From contig CBDEUS010000001.1 in assembly GCA_965243395.1 (NCBI GenBank), positions 544,001 to 608,000 of the forward strand: a DNA stretch of 64,000 nt, in the 5' to 3' direction. This document shows positions 4,382 to 21,054 of this stretch, in pieces. The stretch comes from Gammaproteobacteria bacterium. Its GTDB lineage: Bacteria; Pseudomonadota; Gammaproteobacteria; UBA4575. The first letter of the stretch is position 1; the number at the start of each line of letters is the position of its first letter. The notes under the pieces were generated by a model, which saw only the letters and a program-made list of their open reading frames with translations, was not told the origin of the DNA and made no database searches. Position numbers and translations under genes: made by a program.

Positions 4382-4744
4382 ATGAGTGAAGCCAGCTTAT
4401 ATGAGCGTCTCGGTGGAGGAGACAAAATCAGAGATATCGTTGCCGATGTATGGGCAAATCATACTAGTAACCCTAAGGTTAAAAATCGTTATGTGAATAG
4501 TGACGGTGAAAAGGTTAAGCAAGTGGTATGGGAATTTTTCTGTTCGGGTATCGGTGGGCCTCAAGAGTACACGGGTCAAGACATGCTTACTGCTCACACG
4601 GGTATGAATATCAATGATACCGAATTCAATGCTGTATGCGATGACGTGCTAGCTGCATTAGACAAGAATAATGTGGGTCAGAAGGAAAGAGATGAAGTGC
4701 TTTGTATCCTCTATTCCATGAAAGGCGATATTGTCGACGTATAA
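4382..4744 (+). CDS. group I truncated hemoglobin (2/2 globin)
   Basis: LYERLGG, GGP..YTG..M..AH.GMNI...EF; AGGAG RBS upstream of ATG 4382. Confidence 0.88.
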   Translation: MSEASLYERLGGGDKIRDIVADVWANHTSNPKVKNRYVNSDGEKVKQVVWEFFCSGIGGPQEYTGQDMLTAHTGMNINDTEFNAVCDDVLAALDKNNVGQKERDEVLCILYSMKGDIVDV

Positions 4745-13811: not shown

Positions 13812-14210
13812 ATGTTGCGTCAAACCGATTGGAGTCAATATGATTTGCCAAATGGTGCTGAGGAAAAAATAAAATCTGTTTTCTCGCTTGCAGGTTTGTT
13901 TGATATTCGCTTTTTGTTAGATAGCTTTATCAATGACGAAATAAATATGACACTTAAATCCGCAGAAGCTGTAAGTCCTCAATTGCTCGCAAAACCAAAA
14001 AATGATTTATGTCCTCTACACTTAATTTTGCCTGAATATGATACTGCTGAATTTTTTAGGCAAACAAAACAGTATCAGGATAAATTGCTGGAAGAAAAAC
14101 AAACATGTCATTTGAAAGTAGTGCATGAGAAAGATCATCTGACAATCATTGAACATTTAATCAATGATGATGACGAGCTATTAAATTACATATTGAAACA
14201 TATGGGGTAA
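13812..14210 (+). pseudogene. 5'-truncated alpha/beta-hydrolase (arylformamidase-like) remnant
   Basis: TDW..Y.LP, SLAGLFD, SP, EF.RQ and DH.TII match the C-terminal half of the family; HGG and GxSxG are missing; in-frame TGA at 13800-13802. Confidence 0.55.
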
Positions 14211-15132: not shown

Positions 15133-15377
15133 ATATTTATCTTCAATAAGTTACTTGCTGGACTCCGAGTTCGCTCGAGCTAGTTTTGATTTGGAGCCTT
15201 TTTTGATATCAGGCTCAAAATTGTTGAACCTATGCTACAAAAACACCCATTACGAATGTTATAATTTTCTTAAATATCAGTATGCTGGCTCAATAAAATA
15301 ATAAGTGCTTCATACTCGATAACGAATATCGTAACCCTATTTTTCTATAATCTACTTTCTTCTTGATGGAGGTAAAC

Positions 15378-16526
15378 ATGAAGAAACTATTAATCAACGC
15401 GCGCTATTTTTTAGCCCCGTTTTTAATATTAGCGAGTTTATTCGGTGTATTAGCGGGGGGTCCATGGGTATGGACCGGCGTATTACTACTGGGACTGGGT
15501 ATCATCATAGACACCCTGACAACAGCACAAACACCCGGCGCGGGATTTGACGAAAACGGCGACACCAACGGCATCGTGCCCTTACTGAATGGCACCATGT
15601 ACGGCATGCTGGCGGTATTTGTCCTTTTGCAACTGGCCCTTGCCTGGCGCATCTGGCAATACACCAACGGCGTCCCTGTTGTACCGGGGGGTGAAACCAT
15701 CCTGGGCCTTGCGGTTCAAGACGGCATCACCGGCAGCCAACTTGTAGGCGCAGTACTATCCACCGGCATCTTTGCCGGCATCGGCATCATCTACGGACAC
15801 GAACTGGCGCACACCAAAGGCTTCAGCTTCGTGATTGCGCGCTGGATGATGGCATTAAGTGGCAAAGCCCACTTCTGCTACGCGCACGTATACAACCACC
15901 ACCTAGAACTCGGTCACCAAGACGACCCAGCGACCGCGCCACGCGGGCGCAGCATGTACGCCCACTACCCACTATCCGGGTTGGGGCAAAGCAAATTCCT
16001 CTTCATGATGGAAAAACAACGTCTTGAAAGACTAGGAGTACCCTTCCTATCCTGGCAAAACCGCTGGATCCGAGGCTACTTCATGGCATTGCCAACCGTA
16101 CTTCTGTTCTGGTTCGTAGGCGGCTGGCTTGGCATGCTCTGCTTAGCGGGCGTATGGCTGATCTCCAACTTCGAACTCGAAGTCCTCAACTACCTTGAGC
16201 ACTACGGATTGATTCGCGAGAAAGGCCAACCGATTGACTACCGTCATAGCTGGGACAACTCCACCGCGTTTACCAGCTGGTTCTTTATCGAGATTGGTCG
16301 CCAGGCCGACCATCACGATCGCGGCGAGACCCACTTTTGGGAACTCGACGAAGTGGGTGCACCGAACTGCGGACGCGGCTACTTCACCCTGTTTGCATTA
16401 GGCTTATTGCCACCGGTGTTTCATGCCTACATGAAGCAACAGTTGGCGAAGTGGGATGACGAGATGGCCTCTGAGGGCGAACTTAAGATCGCGGACCAGA
16501 TGAATAAACAGGCCGGGTACGCTTAA
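15378..16526 (+). CDS. integral-membrane non-heme di-iron monooxygenase (AlkB/XylM family)
   Basis: His boxes HELAH, HVYNHH, NYLEHYG, QADHH; XylM-like C-terminus (KWD..ASEGE...A...N..AG); GGAGG RBS before ATG 15378. Confidence 0.9.
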   Translation: MKKLLINARYFLAPFLILASLFGVLAGGPWVWTGVLLLGLGIIIDTLTTAQTPGAGFDENGDTNGIVPLLNGTMYGMLAVFVLLQLALAWRIWQYTNGVPVVPGGETILGLAVQDGITGSQLVGAVLSTGIFAGIGIIYGHELAHTKGFSFVIARWMMALSGKAHFCYAHVYNHHLELGHQDDPATAPRGRSMYAHYPLSGLGQSKFLFMMEKQRLERLGVPFLSWQNRWIRGYFMALPTVLLFWFVGGWLGMLCLAGVWLISNFELEVLNYLEHYGLIREKGQPIDYRHSWDNSTAFTSWFFIEIGRQADHHDRGETHFWELDEVGAPNCGRGYFTLFALGLLPPVFHAYMKQQLAKWDDEMASEGELKIADQMNKQAGYA

Positions 16527-16550
16527 TTCGTACTCCAAGTTTAAGTTGCG

Positions 16551-16598
16551 TGCTTAGTTCACCTGTTCAAAATTTGGGCAGGTGAGGTGAGCATTTTT
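16551..16598 (+). terminator. long hairpin plus T-run after the monooxygenase gene (attenuator or mRNA-stabilising stem)
   Basis: TGCTTA..TCACCTGTTCAAA-A-TTTGGGCAGGTGA..TGAGCA-TTTTT. Confidence 0.6.
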
Positions 16599-16674
16599 AG
16601 TCAAAAAGCTATTAAAATCTGAAAAAAAACGGCAAACTATAGCCATATAATTAAGTAGAACAGGAGTTCCAACA

Positions 16675-16854
16675 ATGAAAGTAACTTATGATGCAGACAC
16701 ATGCAGTCATGCAGGAGAGTGTGTAAAAGGTTCACCCACAGTATTTAAAGTAGAAGACGGTCAATTTGTAATTGATACTGACGCTGCGCCGGAAGCAGAA
16801 ATTCGTGAAACTGTTTCTAAGTGCCCATCAGGTGCTTTAAAAATAGAAGGTTAG
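16675..16854 (+). CDS. 59-aa divergent mono-cluster Fe-S ferredoxin (Fer4_19/YjdI-like); not in the ORF track
   Basis: Manual translation MKVTYDADTCSHAGECVKGSPTVFKVEDGQFVIDTDAAPEAEIRETVSKCPSGALKIEG*; CxHxGxC...CPSGAL; AGGAG RBS. Confidence 0.88.
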   Translation: MKVTYDADTCSHAGECVKGSPTVFKVEDGQFVIDTDAAPEAEIRETVSKCPSGALKIEG

Positions 16855-17007
16855 ACTGATAAGAATCAGTTTTAGAGTTTTACTTTAGTGCTGATTAACA
16901 CTAAAGTTTTAAATAAATAAAAATGAATGGTTGAGGAGTGTTTTTTACAGAGCACACTTAACATTGTTTAAAATTATCCTAATGAAGTTTGTCAATTAGG
17001 GGGAGAT

Positions 17008-17661
17008 ATGATTGGAGATCAACTAAGAACAAAAATGATTTTGAGCGGACATCCAAGTTGTCCAAACACAGGAAAATGTTTACAAACTGCTGGTGAAAAA
17101 GGTGTTGATGTAGAAACCGTGGTGATCAGCGGAATGGATGACAGTGATTTTCTAGCAAAATCTCCTTATGGCATCGGTCCTGTACTACAAGATATTGACT
17201 TTATTGTTTATGGGACAACTGCTGTGATGTCATATCTTGATGATAAAGGCTTTGGCCCATCTCTTGTTCCACGGAATGGCGTACATCGAGCAGTGATGTA
17301 TCAATGGGCTGGTATAGCAACTGAAAAAGTTCAGGCCATGATGGGAGATAACATGGATAAAGATGGACTTGGTACGTTGTTTGACGGTTTAGAAGCACAA
17401 GTTAAAAATCCACCTAAGAAAGGTGATTTTATTTGTGGTGATTTTTCATTGGCTGATATTCACTGGGCTGCTTGCTGTAACTTACTAGAGCACTCTGGTG
17501 CTGGTGATTTAATAAGTTCTCGCTCCGGTGTTAGTGCCTGGTATGACAAAGTAAAATCGCACCCATCAACTAGTAAAGAAAAGCTTGAGCCATACAGCTG
17601 CTTGCCAACTGCAAGTGATGTAAGTTCTGGTACTTTGCGAGATATTTCAATAAACGTTTAG
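17008..17661 (+). CDS. glutathione S-transferase family protein
   Basis: N-terminal CP, EKG, SP.G..PVL, YLD; C-terminal GDFSLADI N-cap motif. Confidence 0.85.
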   Translation: MIGDQLRTKMILSGHPSCPNTGKCLQTAGEKGVDVETVVISGMDDSDFLAKSPYGIGPVLQDIDFIVYGTTAVMSYLDDKGFGPSLVPRNGVHRAVMYQWAGIATEKVQAMMGDNMDKDGLGTLFDGLEAQVKNPPKKGDFICGDFSLADIHWAACCNLLEHSGAGDLISSRSGVSAWYDKVKSHPSTSKEKLEPYSCLPTASDVSSGTLRDISINV

Positions 17662-17732
17662 AAAATATTTCTTTTTTAAACACATACAAGCGTTCTCAAT
17701 ACTGGAAAGGACGCCAGTGAGTACTCGAAATC

Positions 17733-18812
17733 ATGTTTGGACTATTCGGCGGTAATAAAGACTGGCATGCAACCATCAATGCTGGTGAGCACACTATCAC
17801 GGTTAAAGCCGGTGACAATTTATTAAATGCTGCACTTGAGGCAGGTATACCTTGGCCTCATGATTGCCGTGTAGGGAGTTGCAGTACCTGTCAGTGCACA
17901 CTGAAAAGTGGCAAAATCAAAGCATTAACTGATTTTTCTTATGTGTTAGATCCTGACCAACTTAAAAGTGGCAGGATATTGGCATGTCAAACACGTTTAA
18001 AAACTGATGTAGAAATTGAGGTAGAGCTCAGTGATGCTCCTGCAGTTGAGCTTAAATCCTATGACGGCAAAATTATCAGTGCCAAAAACCTTACCCATGA
18101 CATTAAAGAATTAGTGATTAAATGTGATGGTGATGTTGATCACTCAGGAATGGCGGGACAATATTCAGAAGTAAAAATTGAATCAATTGAGGAACCTCGA
18201 TCCTATTCTTATGCAAAGGCTCCAAAGCAAGAGAAGCCAGGCGAGTTTACTTTTTATGTGCGTTTGGTGCCGAATGGTAAATTCACCGAGTGGCTATTTG
18301 CGGAAGATAGGGTGGGTGAAAGCGTTAAACTAACAGGACCGTATGGGCAATTTTATCGTCGTGAAGAAGACTCAACGATGGTTTGTATTGCTGGTGGAAG
18401 TGGGATGAGTGCGATTAAGGCAATATTGGAGGACTCTGCAGCACAGCAAATTAAGCGCGATTGTCTATATTTGTTTGGCGCACGTACCCAAGATGATCTT
18501 TATTGTATAGATGATATGGCTACCATTGGTACCAAGTGGAATAAAGATAATTCCTTTGAATTTGTACCAGTACTTAATATGGAACCAGAAGACAGTAATT
18601 GGGACGGTGCGAGGGGCTTGGTAACAGATTATTTGAAGTCAGCCTATGTGGATACTGGTAAAATAAACATGGGTAAGTCCCAAGGTTATTTATGTGGTCC
18701 ACCACCGATGATTGATGCGGCAATTGATGTAATGGTGGACCAGGGAATGAATAAAGAGAACATATTCTTTGATAAGTTCTTGGATGCGAGTTCAATGCCC
18801 GGAGGGCGTTAG
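17733..18812 (+). CDS. 2Fe-2S ferredoxin/FAD-NAD(P)H reductase (XylA-like monooxygenase electron-transfer component)
   Basis: CRVGSCSTC...C plant-type 2Fe-2S, RSYS, GPYG, IAGGSG, YLCGPPPM. Confidence 0.92.
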   Translation: MFGLFGGNKDWHATINAGEHTITVKAGDNLLNAALEAGIPWPHDCRVGSCSTCQCTLKSGKIKALTDFSYVLDPDQLKSGRILACQTRLKTDVEIEVELSDAPAVELKSYDGKIISAKNLTHDIKELVIKCDGDVDHSGMAGQYSEVKIESIEEPRSYSYAKAPKQEKPGEFTFYVRLVPNGKFTEWLFAEDRVGESVKLTGPYGQFYRREEDSTMVCIAGGSGMSAIKAILEDSAAQQIKRDCLYLFGARTQDDLYCIDDMATIGTKWNKDNSFEFVPVLNMEPEDSNWDGARGLVTDYLKSAYVDTGKINMGKSQGYLCGPPPMIDAAIDVMVDQGMNKENIFFDKFLDASSMPGGR

Positions 18813-18843
18813 GTATATTTATAAAGAGTATTAGGAGACGGTT

Positions 18844-19071
18844 ATGCGTACATTACAAGCATTAGGAGTAATGGCACTTTGGACCATTGCATTTTTAGGA
18901 ATTATGAACTGGCTTAATGTTGGCGCGCACAATAGAGAATGGTATTGGGCGCTTGGTACAGCACTGATGTTCATAATTATGATCATAGGTAATTTCTGGA
19001 TCTTTTTTGCAATTGGTAAAGAAGAACCATGGGATTGGGTCAAAAATAAAGAAAGTGGTGGTGAAGAATAG
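18844..19071 (+). CDS. small two-TM membrane protein of unknown function
   Basis: AGGAG RBS, two hydrophobic helices, last gene before the terminator. Confidence 0.7.
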   Translation: MRTLQALGVMALWTIAFLGIMNWLNVGAHNREWYWALGTALMFIIMIIGNFWIFFAIGKEEPWDWVKNKESGGEE

Positions 19072-19098: not shown

Positions 19099-19134
19099 AA
19101 AAAAGGCTGCAATACTAAATGCGGCCTTTTTTTT
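19099..19134. terminator. bidirectional terminator between the monooxygenase operon and gluQ
   Basis: AAAAAA-GGCTGCA-loop-TGCGGCC-T-run. Confidence 0.8.
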
Positions 19135-20096: not shown

Positions 20097-20948
20097 CTAT
20101 GTAAATATTTGTTTTTCCTTAATTTCTTGAAGAGTTTTGCAGTCGATGCATAAAGTAGCAGTGGGTCTCGCTTCAAGGCGTTTGATGCCAATTTCTATTC
20201 CACACGATTCACAATACCCGTAGTCTTCGGCATCAATTGAGGCAAGTGTTTTATTAATTTTTCTTATTAGTTTGCTTTCACGGTCGCGTGTACGAAGCTC
20301 CAAGCTAAATTCTTCTTCCTGAGTAGCGCGATCAGCTGGGTCGGCAAATTGACTTGCATCGTTCTTCATTTGATCAACCGTGCGATTCACCTCATCTAAC
20401 AATTCTTGTTTCCACGTAAGAAGAATATTTCTGAAATGTTCTAACTGTTTATCGCTCATATAGCTTTCACCGCGATGCATGGTGTAGGGAGTAATACCTT
20501 CAACAGGTAGTTCTACAGGCGAGCGTTTATTAAGTAGTTCGATACGCTTCTTCTTTTTTTCTTCCCTTTTTGCCTGTAATTTTTGTTCTTGCAGTTCGGC
20601 TTTTGTGGGTTTTTTTTCTGCGGCTTTTTTTGCACTTACCTTCTTTGTGGCAGCCTTCTTTTTGGGTGCAGCCTTTTTCTTTACCGCAGCCTTCTTTTTG
20701 GGTGCAGCCTTTTTCTTTACCGCAGCCTTCTTTTTGGGTGCAGCCTTTTTCTTTACCGCAGCCTTTTTCTTGGGTGCAGCCTTTTTCTTTACCGCAGCCT
20801 TCTTTTTGGGTGCAGCTTTTTTCTTTACCGCAGCCTTCTTTTTGGGTGCAGCTTTTTTCTTTACCGCAGCCTTCTTCTTGGGTGCAGCCTTTTTCTTCGC
20901 TGCGGCCTTCTTCTTAGGTGTGGTTTTTTTCTTTGTCTTGGCTGGCAT
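20097..20948 (-). CDS. dksA: RNA polymerase-binding factor DksA with a long Lys/Ala/Pro-rich N-terminal extension
   Basis: DPADRA coiled-coil tip, CESC/CIDC zinc finger, RLEARPTA; start at ATG 20948 (MPAKTKKK) preferred. Confidence 0.95.
   Translation of the reverse strand: MPAKTKKKTTPKKKAAAKKKAAPKKKAAVKKKAAPKKKAAVKKKAAPKKKAAVKKKAAPKKKAAVKKKAAPKKKAAVKKKAAPKKKAAVKKKAAPKKKAATKKVSAKKAAEKKPTKAELQEQKLQAKREEKKKKRIELLNKRSPVELPVEGITPYTMHRGESYMSDKQLEHFRNILLTWKQELLDEVNRTVDQMKNDASQFADPADRATQEEEFSLELRTRDRESKLIRKINKTLASIDAEDYGYCESCGIEIGIKRLEARPTATLCIDCKTLQEIKEKQIFT
20650..20918 (-). repeat. 36-bp coding tandem repeat (AAVKKKAAPKKK)n within dksA
   Basis: TTACCGCAGCC recurs at 20681, 20717, 20753, 20789, 20825 and 20861 (period 36, sub-period 18). 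Confidence 0.95.
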
Positions 20949-21054
20949 GAATGACCCTCTTAAAATGAAGCCCGCTTTTATGCCAGATCTATCGCTCGGT
21001 GGCAAGCTACGATTTTAGGTAAGTCAGAAGTGATGTTGAAAATTGGCTTATTTA

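Follow-up and report, generated by a model that had tools for sequence, protein, structure and literature searches.

A XylM-related membrane oxygenase operon of sulfur-oxidising bacteria as a candidate for the first step of dimethyl sulfide catabolism

Introduction

Of the biogenic sulfur gases that leave the ocean, dimethyl sulfide (DMS) is the main one, and its consumption by bacteria controls the amount that escapes. Here we describe a five-gene operon from a gammaproteobacterium of the lineage UBA4575, found in a stretch of 64,000 nucleotides (positions 544,001 to 608,000 of contig CBDEUS010000001.1, assembly GCA_965243395.1; hereafter 'the window'). It comprises a membrane di-iron oxygenase (here AlkBl), a small ferredoxin, a protein with a glutathione S-transferase (GST) fold, a reductase and a small protein with two transmembrane helices (2-TM; here TM75). 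We propose, with a probability of about one half, that these genes specify a membrane monooxygenase of several components, belonging to a separate clade related to XylM, and that this enzyme acts on DMS or a similar small methyl thioether to give methanethiol and formaldehyde.

The nearest characterised branch in our tree holds the XylM/XylA systems of TOL-type plasmids (e.g. pWW53), which share with the operon the PF00487 membrane di-iron fold, the NYxEHYG motif and a XylA-type 2Fe-2S/FAD/NAD reductase, with no rubredoxin. XylM is, however, only about 29–31% identical to AlkBl and keeps a histidine in its fourth histidine box (NHINHH) where AlkBl has glutamine, and the AlkBl system has in addition a ferredoxin, a GST-fold protein, a 2-TM protein and a truncated haemoglobin. 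Benzyl-alcohol and benzaldehyde dehydrogenases lie adjacent to the xylM of pWW53, whereas none lies beside AlkBl, which is chromosomal and occurs in sulfur oxidisers rather than on TOL-type plasmids. AlkB, with its rubredoxin AlkG and reductase AlkT (structures 8SBB and 8F6T), has the same fold and di-iron site architecture, but it depends on rubredoxin where the AlkBl operon offers a ferredoxin and a XylA-type reductase, and the AlkB locus of pCP7-41 has alcohol and aldehyde dehydrogenases that the operon lacks.

Enzymes of the AlkB family demethylate methyl ethers and oxidise thioethers; MdpA of Methylibium petroleiphilum, a monooxygenase of methyl tert-butyl ether (MTBE), hydroxylates a methyl group bound to a heteroatom with release of formaldehyde. 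Going by this general description, MdpA differs from what we propose for AlkBl in acting on an ether rather than on the S-methyl group of a thioether. DmoA is a soluble, flavin-dependent enzyme of the luciferase family. In the accessible part of its description, DmoAB of Hyphomicrobium sulfonivorans carries out the reaction proposed here (DMS + O2 + reductant -> methanethiol + formaldehyde), upstream of the methanethiol oxidase MtoX; DmoA is unrelated to AlkBl by fold, the genome containing the window has no match to its family (PF00296), and any likeness in function would be one of analogy. A GST-fold gene within an oxygenase operon also recalls the epoxide-opening GSTs IsoI and StyI, although, by description, the oxygenase there is of a different family, while the GST of the AlkBl operon is without a canonical glutathione-binding site (G-site) and no dehydrogenase or CoA-transferase follows it.

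Phylogeny and metal site of the oxygenase

The open reading frame (ORF) listing places five co-directional ORFs at window positions 15378-19071 (+), in agreement with the original prediction, made from the window's letters, of a five-gene oxygenase operon. AlkBl matches PF00487 at 101.9 bits (cut-off 29.7) and the solved AlkB structures with E-values of 1.3e-26 (8sbb_A) and 3.5e-24 (8f6t_A), has no match to any NCBIfam model, and shares ~28-34% identity with XylM and AlkB genes found on plasmids. Its top full-length match in a library with clustering at 50% identity scored 636 bits (72% identity) and the next 193 bits (33%); the family is therefore tight and isolated. The clade is also slow to evolve, as judged by comparison with PNPase (see below). 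Database names for clade proteins are only 'fatty acid desaturase' or 'alkane 1-monooxygenase'.

We built a 59-row tree from 19 members of the clade, 35 representatives from outside it and 5 references that come from annotated plasmids, and rooted it with the rubredoxin-linked AlkBs of pCP7-41 and pROB01 as outgroup. The AlkBl clade is monophyletic, with a Shimodaira–Hasegawa-like approximate likelihood-ratio (SH-aLRT) support of 100, and is sister to the XylM of pWW53 and pNL1 (SH-aLRT 95), the XylM/CymAa group being represented by XylM sequences only, without CymAa; it branches among the XylM/AlkB hydroxylases on a long stem. The original prediction of an undescribed system, a XylM/AlkB-type oxygenase with an electron chain of its own, thus holds in the sense that AlkBl falls outside the characterised clades.

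The first three histidine boxes are kept in AlkBl (HELAH, HVYNHH, NYLEHYG), and in the fourth, RQADHH, glutamine replaces the first histidine. This glutamine is found in 18 of the 19 clade rows, against histidine in all 40 others (5/5 references and 35/35 out-clade representatives). By structure alignment it corresponds to H321 of FtAlkB, the vestibule residues L141, L274 and L318 of which align to Ile, Leu and Ile in AlkBl (numbering as given in the accessible part of PMC10110569). AlkBl is therefore a variant, rather than a canonical, member of the PF00487 fold, and is neither an ordinary alkane hydroxylase nor an ordinary xylene hydroxylase.

The clade occurs in 16 of 400 Gammaproteobacteria genomes, spread over about 11 GTDB families, and in two of 401 genomes of a phylum-wide sample, one of the two being the window's own. 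This patchy distribution, together with relatives in Alpha- and Betaproteobacteria at up to about 70% identity, gives AlkBl the appearance of an accessory trait that can be transferred. Among the homologues listed, those that have names and 67-80% identity come from Hyphomicrobium, Thiobacillus, Chromatiaceae and Acidiferrobacterales.

In what follows, L denotes fetched loci and G genomes, G000 being the window's own genome (2.58 Mb, 38% GC). As a separate observation, five contigs labelled Porisulfidus or related to these (L066, L069, L070, L071, L073) have a second AlkB-like ORF of ~800 aa, ~4 kb downstream of AlkBl and 28-29% identical to it, the length of which would allow a fusion with redox domains; similar long AlkB-like forms occur among the out-clade representatives (P0133, P0148, P0171).

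Association with methanethiol oxidase

As a marker for MtoX we used SBP56 (PF05694), which matched 49 of the 400 Gammaproteobacteria genomes at E <=0.001 (46 over the cut-off). It is present in 15 of the 16 AlkBl-positive genomes, the single miss being G099, which is 80% complete, and in 34 of the 384 AlkBl-negative genomes (31 over the cut-off); at the level of GTDB families, SBP56 occurs in 10 of the 11 that have AlkBl. The original prediction had mentioned, in passing, an oxidised methyl-sulfur species among its possible products, a suggestion that gains support from this link.

In some genomes the association extends to physical clustering. In L090 the genes for AlkBl, a truncated haemoglobin and the reductase are followed directly by a secreted SBP56 protein (MtoX) and a SCO1::MauG fusion, an order that the metagenome contig L111 repeats, with SCO1 and a TlpA-like gene besides. 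The series in L093, which belongs to a genome of ~1.1 Mb, is AlkBl-ferredoxin-GST-reductase-p90 (a 90-aa protein)-FadL-like-MtoX, preceded by a SCO1 gene on the minus strand, and G347 shows the same spacing. SBP56 lies 1.3 kb downstream in G351 and ~17 kb downstream in G145 and G312, and MauG/SCO1 genes lie 6-8 kb upstream in L116, L132 and L154. The mtoX-sco1/mauG order of L090 and L093 matches the methanethiol oxidase arrangement given in the accessible part of PMC6548844.

The window's own genome has mtoX together with SCO1, MauG-like and TlpA-like genes at G000:C1:657229-663109, a cluster bracketed on both sides by Fhc-like (formylmethanofuran dehydrogenase-like) genes of the tetrahydromethanopterin route of formaldehyde oxidation, named from their translations alone. 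Fae was found in all five clade-positive genomes searched, twice in the one of ~1.1 Mb, and a luciferase-family gene (PF00296) was not found in four of the five, the window's own among them. The wider region G000:C1:650128-669365 contains sets resembling the formyltransferase/hydrolase (Fhc) complex and a pterin-carbinolamine-dehydratase-like gene, again from translations alone; a gene of the latter kind also precedes the AlkBl-MtoX cluster of L093.

Published dimethyl sulfide biology

Methylophaga thiooxydans uses DMS as a carbon source through a primary enzyme that, in the accessible part of the report, was left unidentified (PMC6548844). In Table S6 of that study, which compares DMS with methanol, 'Oxidoreductase, NAD-binding domain' stands at 618 vs 12, 'HbN haemoglobin' at 601 vs 21, 'Membrane protein, aromatic hydrocarbon degradation' at 1469 vs 18 and the mtoX genes at 17350 vs 37 and 4064 vs 20, with both sco1/mauG genes likewise raised (PMC6548844). 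Genes with the annotations of such a set are induced 29-136-fold on DMS, and by annotation they belong to the gene families of L090 and L111. A DMS-induced 'fatty acid desaturase' was interpreted by the authors, in the portion of the text available, as a sign of membrane repair (PMC6548844).

Hyphomicrobium and Thiobacillus, both with AlkBl relatives, are described as DMS degraders in the accessible literature. For the conversion of DMS to methanethiol, a preprint from December 2025 and a review from June 2026 list, in their available parts, no candidate besides DmoA and an unidentified methyltransferase. DmoA, the only enzyme known for this conversion, is reported as rare in what is accessible of a survey of gutless-oligochaete symbionts, and the literature still gives the first step in Methylophaga, the model degrader of DMS in the sea, as unidentified. 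Our literature search, which covered few subscription journals, returned no description of the clade or of an AlkB/XylM-type DMS enzyme, and found DMS terms combined with 'fatty acid desaturase' only in PMC6548844.

Proposed function

Guilt by association, together with this one published expression data set matched by annotation, suggests DMS as the substrate of AlkBl. Electrons would pass from NAD(P)H through the FAD/2Fe-2S reductase and the small ferredoxin to the di-iron centre of AlkBl, where one S-methyl group of DMS would be hydroxylated; the hemithioacetal product would collapse to methanethiol and formaldehyde. MtoX, a periplasmic copper enzyme, would then convert methanethiol to sulfide (or sulfane sulfur), formaldehyde and H2O2, with sulfide entering sulfur oxidation and formaldehyde the tetrahydromethanopterin (H4MPT) pathway. 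TM75 could act as a small membrane subunit and the truncated haemoglobin as a helper handling O2 or sulfide. The GST-fold protein might partner the reductase or the hydroxylase; an adaptor or thiol-handling role may suit it better than that of a classical glutathione conjugase. In genomes with a second, identical AlkBl copy, domains and repeats suggest that this twin, behind a LitR/CarH-type B12 photoregulator, would add hydroxylase in the light. Gene content, clade, variant metal-site residue, conserved partners, the association with mtoX and the conversion between copies are observations; substrate, products, electron path, light induction and accessory roles are inferences.

We extend this, with a confidence that stops somewhat short of even, to the proposal that the clade as a whole is the non-DmoA first enzyme of aerobic DMS catabolism, a step long ascribed to a 'DMS methyltransferase'. 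Its hosts would then be Methylophaga-type methylotrophs, Thiobacillus, Hyphomicrobium, and abundant marine and symbiotic sulfur oxidisers, and its distinctive features would be the di-iron site of eight histidines plus a glutamine, accessory subunits of the haemoglobin, GST-fold and 2-TM kinds, and in some lineages a light-switched twin whose identity gene conversion maintains. If so, AlkBl would serve as a marker gene for sinks of DMS in seawater, sediments, soils and animal symbioses, small-genome sulfur-oxidising symbionts would have an organosulfur source of energy, and the AlkB/XylM family would acquire a reaction of a new kind at an altered metal site.

Conserved partners and the GST-fold protein

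Gene neighbourhoods were compared in the best 80 of 364 relatives, taken from species-representative genomes. AlkBl with an adjacent GST-fold gene ('type A') accounts for 22 of these 80 loci, a regulator/FabA/241-aa-protein type for 47 and other kinds for 11. Ferredoxin, reductase and TM75 are each present in 21 of the 22 type-A loci, which also have a truncated haemoglobin between AlkBl and ferredoxin (10/22) and further GST-fold paralogues (6/22). The five-gene arrangement thus exceeds chance, its gene order recurring in 22 of 80 loci and in further families. As regards conservation of the GST-fold gene, ferredoxin and 75-aa gene beside AlkBl, on which the original prediction had turned, the last two recur as just given, and the GST-fold gene adjoins AlkBl in 22/80, in 7/18 and, among metagenome loci, in 9/80. 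A second subclade, to which the relatives from Hyphomicrobium, Thiobacillus, Chromatiaceae and Acidiferrobacterales belong, has an AlkBl-haemoglobin-reductase core without a GST orthologue: a search there gave only a partial match at 31% identity in G012 and none in G271. In the metagenome loci (n=80), haemoglobin stands next to AlkBl in 41.

FadL/TodX porins, which are porins for hydrophobic volatiles, adjoin the operon in three loci (L086, L087, L093), as they do in 7 of the 80 metagenome loci. Upstream of the operon in L111, L116, L150, L125, L086 and L092 are genes for an acyl-CoA-dehydrogenase-like protein, a PAS histidine kinase and a LuxR-type regulator, the last two of which are also present in L090 and L080. 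The acyl-CoA-dehydrogenase-fold gene that travels with the kinase and regulator may encode either a partner in sensing or another enzyme acting on organosulfur compounds. No dehydrogenase follows the operon, as had been noted from the window, and Pfam detected no alcohol or aldehyde dehydrogenase family in the genome's own loci or in the 45 flanking proteins scanned (22 of 50 listed ORFs of at least 110 aa, plus 23 from five loci of relatives); the neighbour BLAST searches used chosen query families, none of them a dehydrogenase, and did not screen the loci systematically for such enzymes. In these respects the neighbourhoods do not look like those of hydrocarbon catabolism.

The GST-fold protein has the thioredoxin-like N-domain and helical C-domain of GSTs, matches GST_N_3 at 36.7 bits (cut-off 22), GST_N_2 and GST_N likewise above their cut-offs, and GST_C_3 at 21.5 bits, just below the cut-off of 21.6, and is closest to Phi-class GSTs and SspA (PDB Phi-class match, E 5e-12). 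The canonical glutathione-binding Glu-Ser of helix 3 aligns to Gly-Thr, the glycine being invariant in 18 of 18 orthologues, and the cysteine at the catalytic position is conserved in at least 90% of orthologues, with Asp or His in one member and in the paralogues. The motif SYLDDKGFGPSLVPRN is almost invariant, which may reflect a protein contact. The GST-fold and reductase genes remain neighbours even away from AlkBl: the only AlkBl of G150, G052 and G400 is the regulator-linked one, and the two genes lie together elsewhere. Predicted complexes of AlkBl with the GST-fold protein scored 0.01 in two runs, for which controls were not folded, and carry no weight in either direction.

The original prediction had held that a reactive electrophile is captured by glutathione. 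One part of this stands, in that the GST-fold gene is conserved beside AlkBl homologues and the genome has glutathione synthesis genes. The altered G-site, the subclade without the gene and the lack of glutathione-dependent downstream enzymes leave glutathione capture only partly supported and, together with the unfixed catalytic cysteine, leave its central idea, a reactive electrophile caught by glutathione, unsupported. Glutathione-dependent formaldehyde handling was considered as another role for the protein and rejected, the corresponding dehydrogenase model (TIGR02818) exceeding its cut-off in none of five clade-positive genomes. Nothing points to the alkene, isoprene or halide substrates also put forward there.

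Twin copies, gene conversion and a putative photoregulator

The window's own genome has three copies of AlkBl. Copy 2 (G000:C2:722704-723855) is 99.9% identical to copy 1, that of the operon, from 3 nt before the ATG to exactly the stop codon. The possibility that this twin is an assembly artefact was rejected, as the copies differ by 1 nt and their flanks are unrelated. On one side of copy 2 are a divergent regulator with MerR and B12-binding domains and FabA, and on the other a 241-aa protein. Copy 3, 61% identical, has a Crp-family gene and a further pair of GST-fold genes before it and TM70, a 70-aa paralogue of TM75, after it.

In 13 of 13 other genomes with two copies, the operon copy and the regulator-linked copy share 99.6-100% DNA identity, against 69-90% (median 74%) for AlkBl orthologues between genomes, and for G254 and G187 the tree, too, pairs the copies by genome. 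This near-identity within genomes, set against the divergence between them, indicates ongoing gene conversion, which keeps the twin copies identical. Conversion that is exact to the coding sequence, between a constitutive-looking locus and a putatively LitR-controlled one, is a clean case of concerted evolution in bacteria. AlkBl has a third-codon-position GC content (GC3) of 0.65, against 0.20-0.34 in neighbouring genes; the excess over flanks ranges from +0.01 to +0.16 where a genome has two copies, and comes to ~+0.06 in low-GC lineages with one. That the high GC3 comes from GC-biased gene conversion is only an idea, with horizontal origin or codon selection as alternatives.

The regulator beside the twin, which lies outside the window, matches MerR_1 at 45.8 bits and the B12-binding domain at 30.6 bits, below the cut-off of 32.1. 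Upstream of copy 2 are TGT-containing repeats with 11-bp spacing, conserved in the corresponding regions of 11 genomes and resembling the operator consensus of CarH and LitR. The regulator may be of the kind of the LitR/CarH B12 photoregulators.

Two further genes accompany the regulator-linked copy. The 241-aa protein 3' of copy 2 (L005:9967-10692) matches no family in Pfam, comes after the regulator-linked copy in 29 of the 80 loci compared, and in the protein atlas falls only in clusters of hypothetical proteins, with weak TPR-like leads at 0.83. Twelve kb after copy 2 (L007:8285-9412) is a FAD/NAD reductase that ends in a 4Fe-4S domain and shares 44-52% identity with the operon reductase across the FAD/NAD part; it adjoins a molybdopterin oxidoreductase in the window's own genome and recurs 4-6 kb downstream of regulator-linked AlkBl in L012, L024-L028, L030, L034, L039, L040 and L084.

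Weighing of explanations

Several points weigh against a DMS monooxygenase. Related genomes are not independent, and the co-occurrence of AlkBl and SBP56 is thus a strong pattern rather than a test; the AlkBl-negative genomes counted as having SBP56 include three that are flagged unpublished (G296, G141, G308). Clustering with mto genes was seen in only 4 of 80 metagenome loci and in none of the 80 close-relative genome loci, and in the window's own genome mtoX is ~99 kb from the operon, a linkage that is genomic only. MtoX also handles methanethiol from dimethylsulfoniopropionate (DMSP) or methionine. AlkB usually sulfoxidises thioethers, so that dimethyl sulfoxide (DMSO) could be formed instead of methanethiol, and the exchange of histidine for glutamine shows only that the chemistry differs. 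The presence of one to three GST-fold proteins, the LitR-controlled twin and the frequent FabA neighbour are not explained by the DMS model. As to M. thiooxydans, its genes MDMS009_226, _61 and _199 were matched to the clade by annotation, not by sequence, no Methylophaga protein was among the best 120 homologues listed, and the accessible part of the report states that DMS monooxygenase activity was not detected in extracts and that a methyltransferase had been proposed instead (PMC6548844).

Alternatively, AlkBl might hydroxylate or desaturate a membrane lipid, a quinone or another cell constituent, in a housekeeping or photoprotective role, which would fit its conservation, the FabA neighbour and the link with light. 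Its sequence is conserved as strongly as, or more strongly than, PNPase in 13 of the 14 loci holding both; two copies are retained even in genomes of about 1.1 Mb; FabA adjoins the second copy in 46 of 80 loci, and the MerR and B12-binding regulator precedes it in 40 of 80; in L037 and L035, two of the loci of other kinds, AlkBl adjoins a MerR-type regulator, and in the former also two photolyase/cryptochrome-like genes (read from translations alone); MsrB is directly upstream in 14 of 80 loci; and no catabolic genes lie 3' of AlkBl. An endogenous substrate leaves unexplained, however, the association with mtoX, sco1/mauG, FadL/TodX porins and the PAS kinase and LuxR-type regulator, fits poorly with so patchy a distribution, and is at odds with the position of AlkBl among hydroxylases rather than desaturases; we consider it unlikely. 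We give still less credence to a hydrocarbon or alkene oxygenase (for an alkane, isoprene, a styrene-like compound or a methyl-aromatic) whose electrophilic product the GST would trap by means of glutathione. The XylM/AlkB family with its XylA-type reductase, the GST-fold genes in 22 of 80 loci with up to three paralogues per operon, the glutathione synthesis genes and the nearby porins would all suit it. Yet the G-site is altered around an invariant glycine and the catalytic cysteine is lost in paralogues; the GST is missing from the haemoglobin subclade and occurs in only 9 of 80 metagenome loci; no dehydrogenase, CoA-transferase or conjugate-processing gene was seen among the flanking proteins scanned; and the carriers are mostly small-genome sulfur oxidisers, one cultured SUP05 isolate, which may or may not carry the gene, having used none of the hydrocarbons tested (PMC7368058).

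Equally improbable, in our view, is an S-oxygenase that would oxidise DMS, or thioethers and disulfides derived from methanethiol, at the sulfur to DMSO or a similar product, as detoxification or co-metabolism. It shares the organosulfur context of the proposed DMS demethylation, Pseudomonas AlkB sulfoxidises methyl thioethers, and an altered iron ligand could tune oxygen transfer. DMSO is not a substrate of MtoX, however, and sulfoxidation would therefore strip the clustering of mtoX with sco1/mauG, and the formaldehyde pathway, of their logic; moreover, growth of M. thiooxydans on DMS carbon requires C-S cleavage, according to the accessible part of PMC6548844.

Features of the window

Table 1. 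Features of the AlkBl operon and associated elements in the window.
Feature	Position	Strand	Family or basis
Candidate extended -10 element TGTTATAAT	15257..15265	+	113 nt 5' of AlkBl ATG
AlkBl, AlkB/XylM-type membrane di-iron oxygenase, 382 aa	15378..16526	+	PF00487
Hairpin CACCTG...CAGGTG and T-rich stretch, just 3' of AlkBl stop	16560..16584	+	by eye
Small ferredoxin, 59 aa, Fer4_19 type	16675..16854	+	PF06902, 62.2 bits
GST-fold protein, 217 aa	17008..17661	+	Pfam GST_N_3/GST_N_2/GST_N
XylA/BenC-type reductase, 359 aa	17733..18812	+	Pfam Fer2 + FAD_binding_6 + NAD_binding_1
TM75, 2-TM membrane protein, 75 aa	18844..19071	+	C-terminal EEPWxW motif in relatives
Hairpin terminator GGCTGC-loop-GCGGCC + T8, A-run upstream	19105..19134	.	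read by eye
Truncated haemoglobin (PF01152-type)	4382..4744	+	identity to operonic haemoglobins of relatives

The AlkBl ATG at 15378 has a GGAGG 8 nt 5' of it (Table 1). At a distance similar to that of the candidate -10 element, GTG(C/T)TATA(A/C/G)T aligns in 10 of 12 type-A upstream regions (the window's own and 11 relatives), L031 and L033 not showing it; a consensus promoter scan did not list TGTTATAAT. The hairpin that follows the AlkBl stop, likewise unlisted by a simple terminator scan, may be an internal attenuator, a call of low confidence. At the end of the operon, the hairpin proper spans 19105-19126 and is followed by T8; the simple scan did not list it either, and it bears out the earlier claim of a single closing terminator. 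It is common to the operon and a convergent gluQ-tRNA synthetase-like gene, and could act on both strands because an A-run precedes it.

Three cysteines in the layout C-x5-C...CP suggest that the ferredoxin is of the [3Fe-4S]/[4Fe-4S] mono-cluster type. The reductase has an N-terminal plant-type 2Fe-2S domain followed by FAD and NAD(P)H domains, and its top NCBIfam matches, BenC, AntC and MmoC, each score below the respective cut-off. The absence of rubredoxin noted earlier was confirmed for the operon ORFs, the genome's one rubredoxin gene lying away from them at G000:C2:1132062-1132199. TM75 has no family match in Pfam or NCBIfam; the 29 relatives in the fetched loci, reduced to 26 by removing duplicates and over-long ORFs and aligned with the two own copies, have two hydrophobic helices and the conserved C-terminal motif, making TM75 a candidate membrane subunit.

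Of the genome's three haemoglobin paralogues, the one in the window matches best: its identity is 76% and 72.5% to those of L031 and L036, which sit between AlkBl and ferredoxin, and 64% to the operonic haemoglobin of L090. Its family call comes from Pfam applied to the homologues of L090, L091 and L095, not to the window's ORF itself. Encoded 10.6 kb upstream of the operon, this truncated haemoglobin is a probable sixth component of the system.

Two neighbouring genes deserve mention. The ORF at 13812-14210 (+), of 132 aa, matches the hormone-sensitive-lipase model NF058665 with E 1e-11, far below its cut-off, over the C-terminal 110 of 260 model positions, and may be a remnant or a short esterase-like domain. 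At 20097-21005 (-) is a DksA-like protein, the C-terminal zinc-finger part of which is readable in the ORF, with an N-terminal extension of ~120 aa made of repeated KKKAAPKKKAAV units and resembling a histone H1 tail; its relative in L085 is likewise extended at the N-terminus (271 aa, with the DksA domains starting at residue 156).

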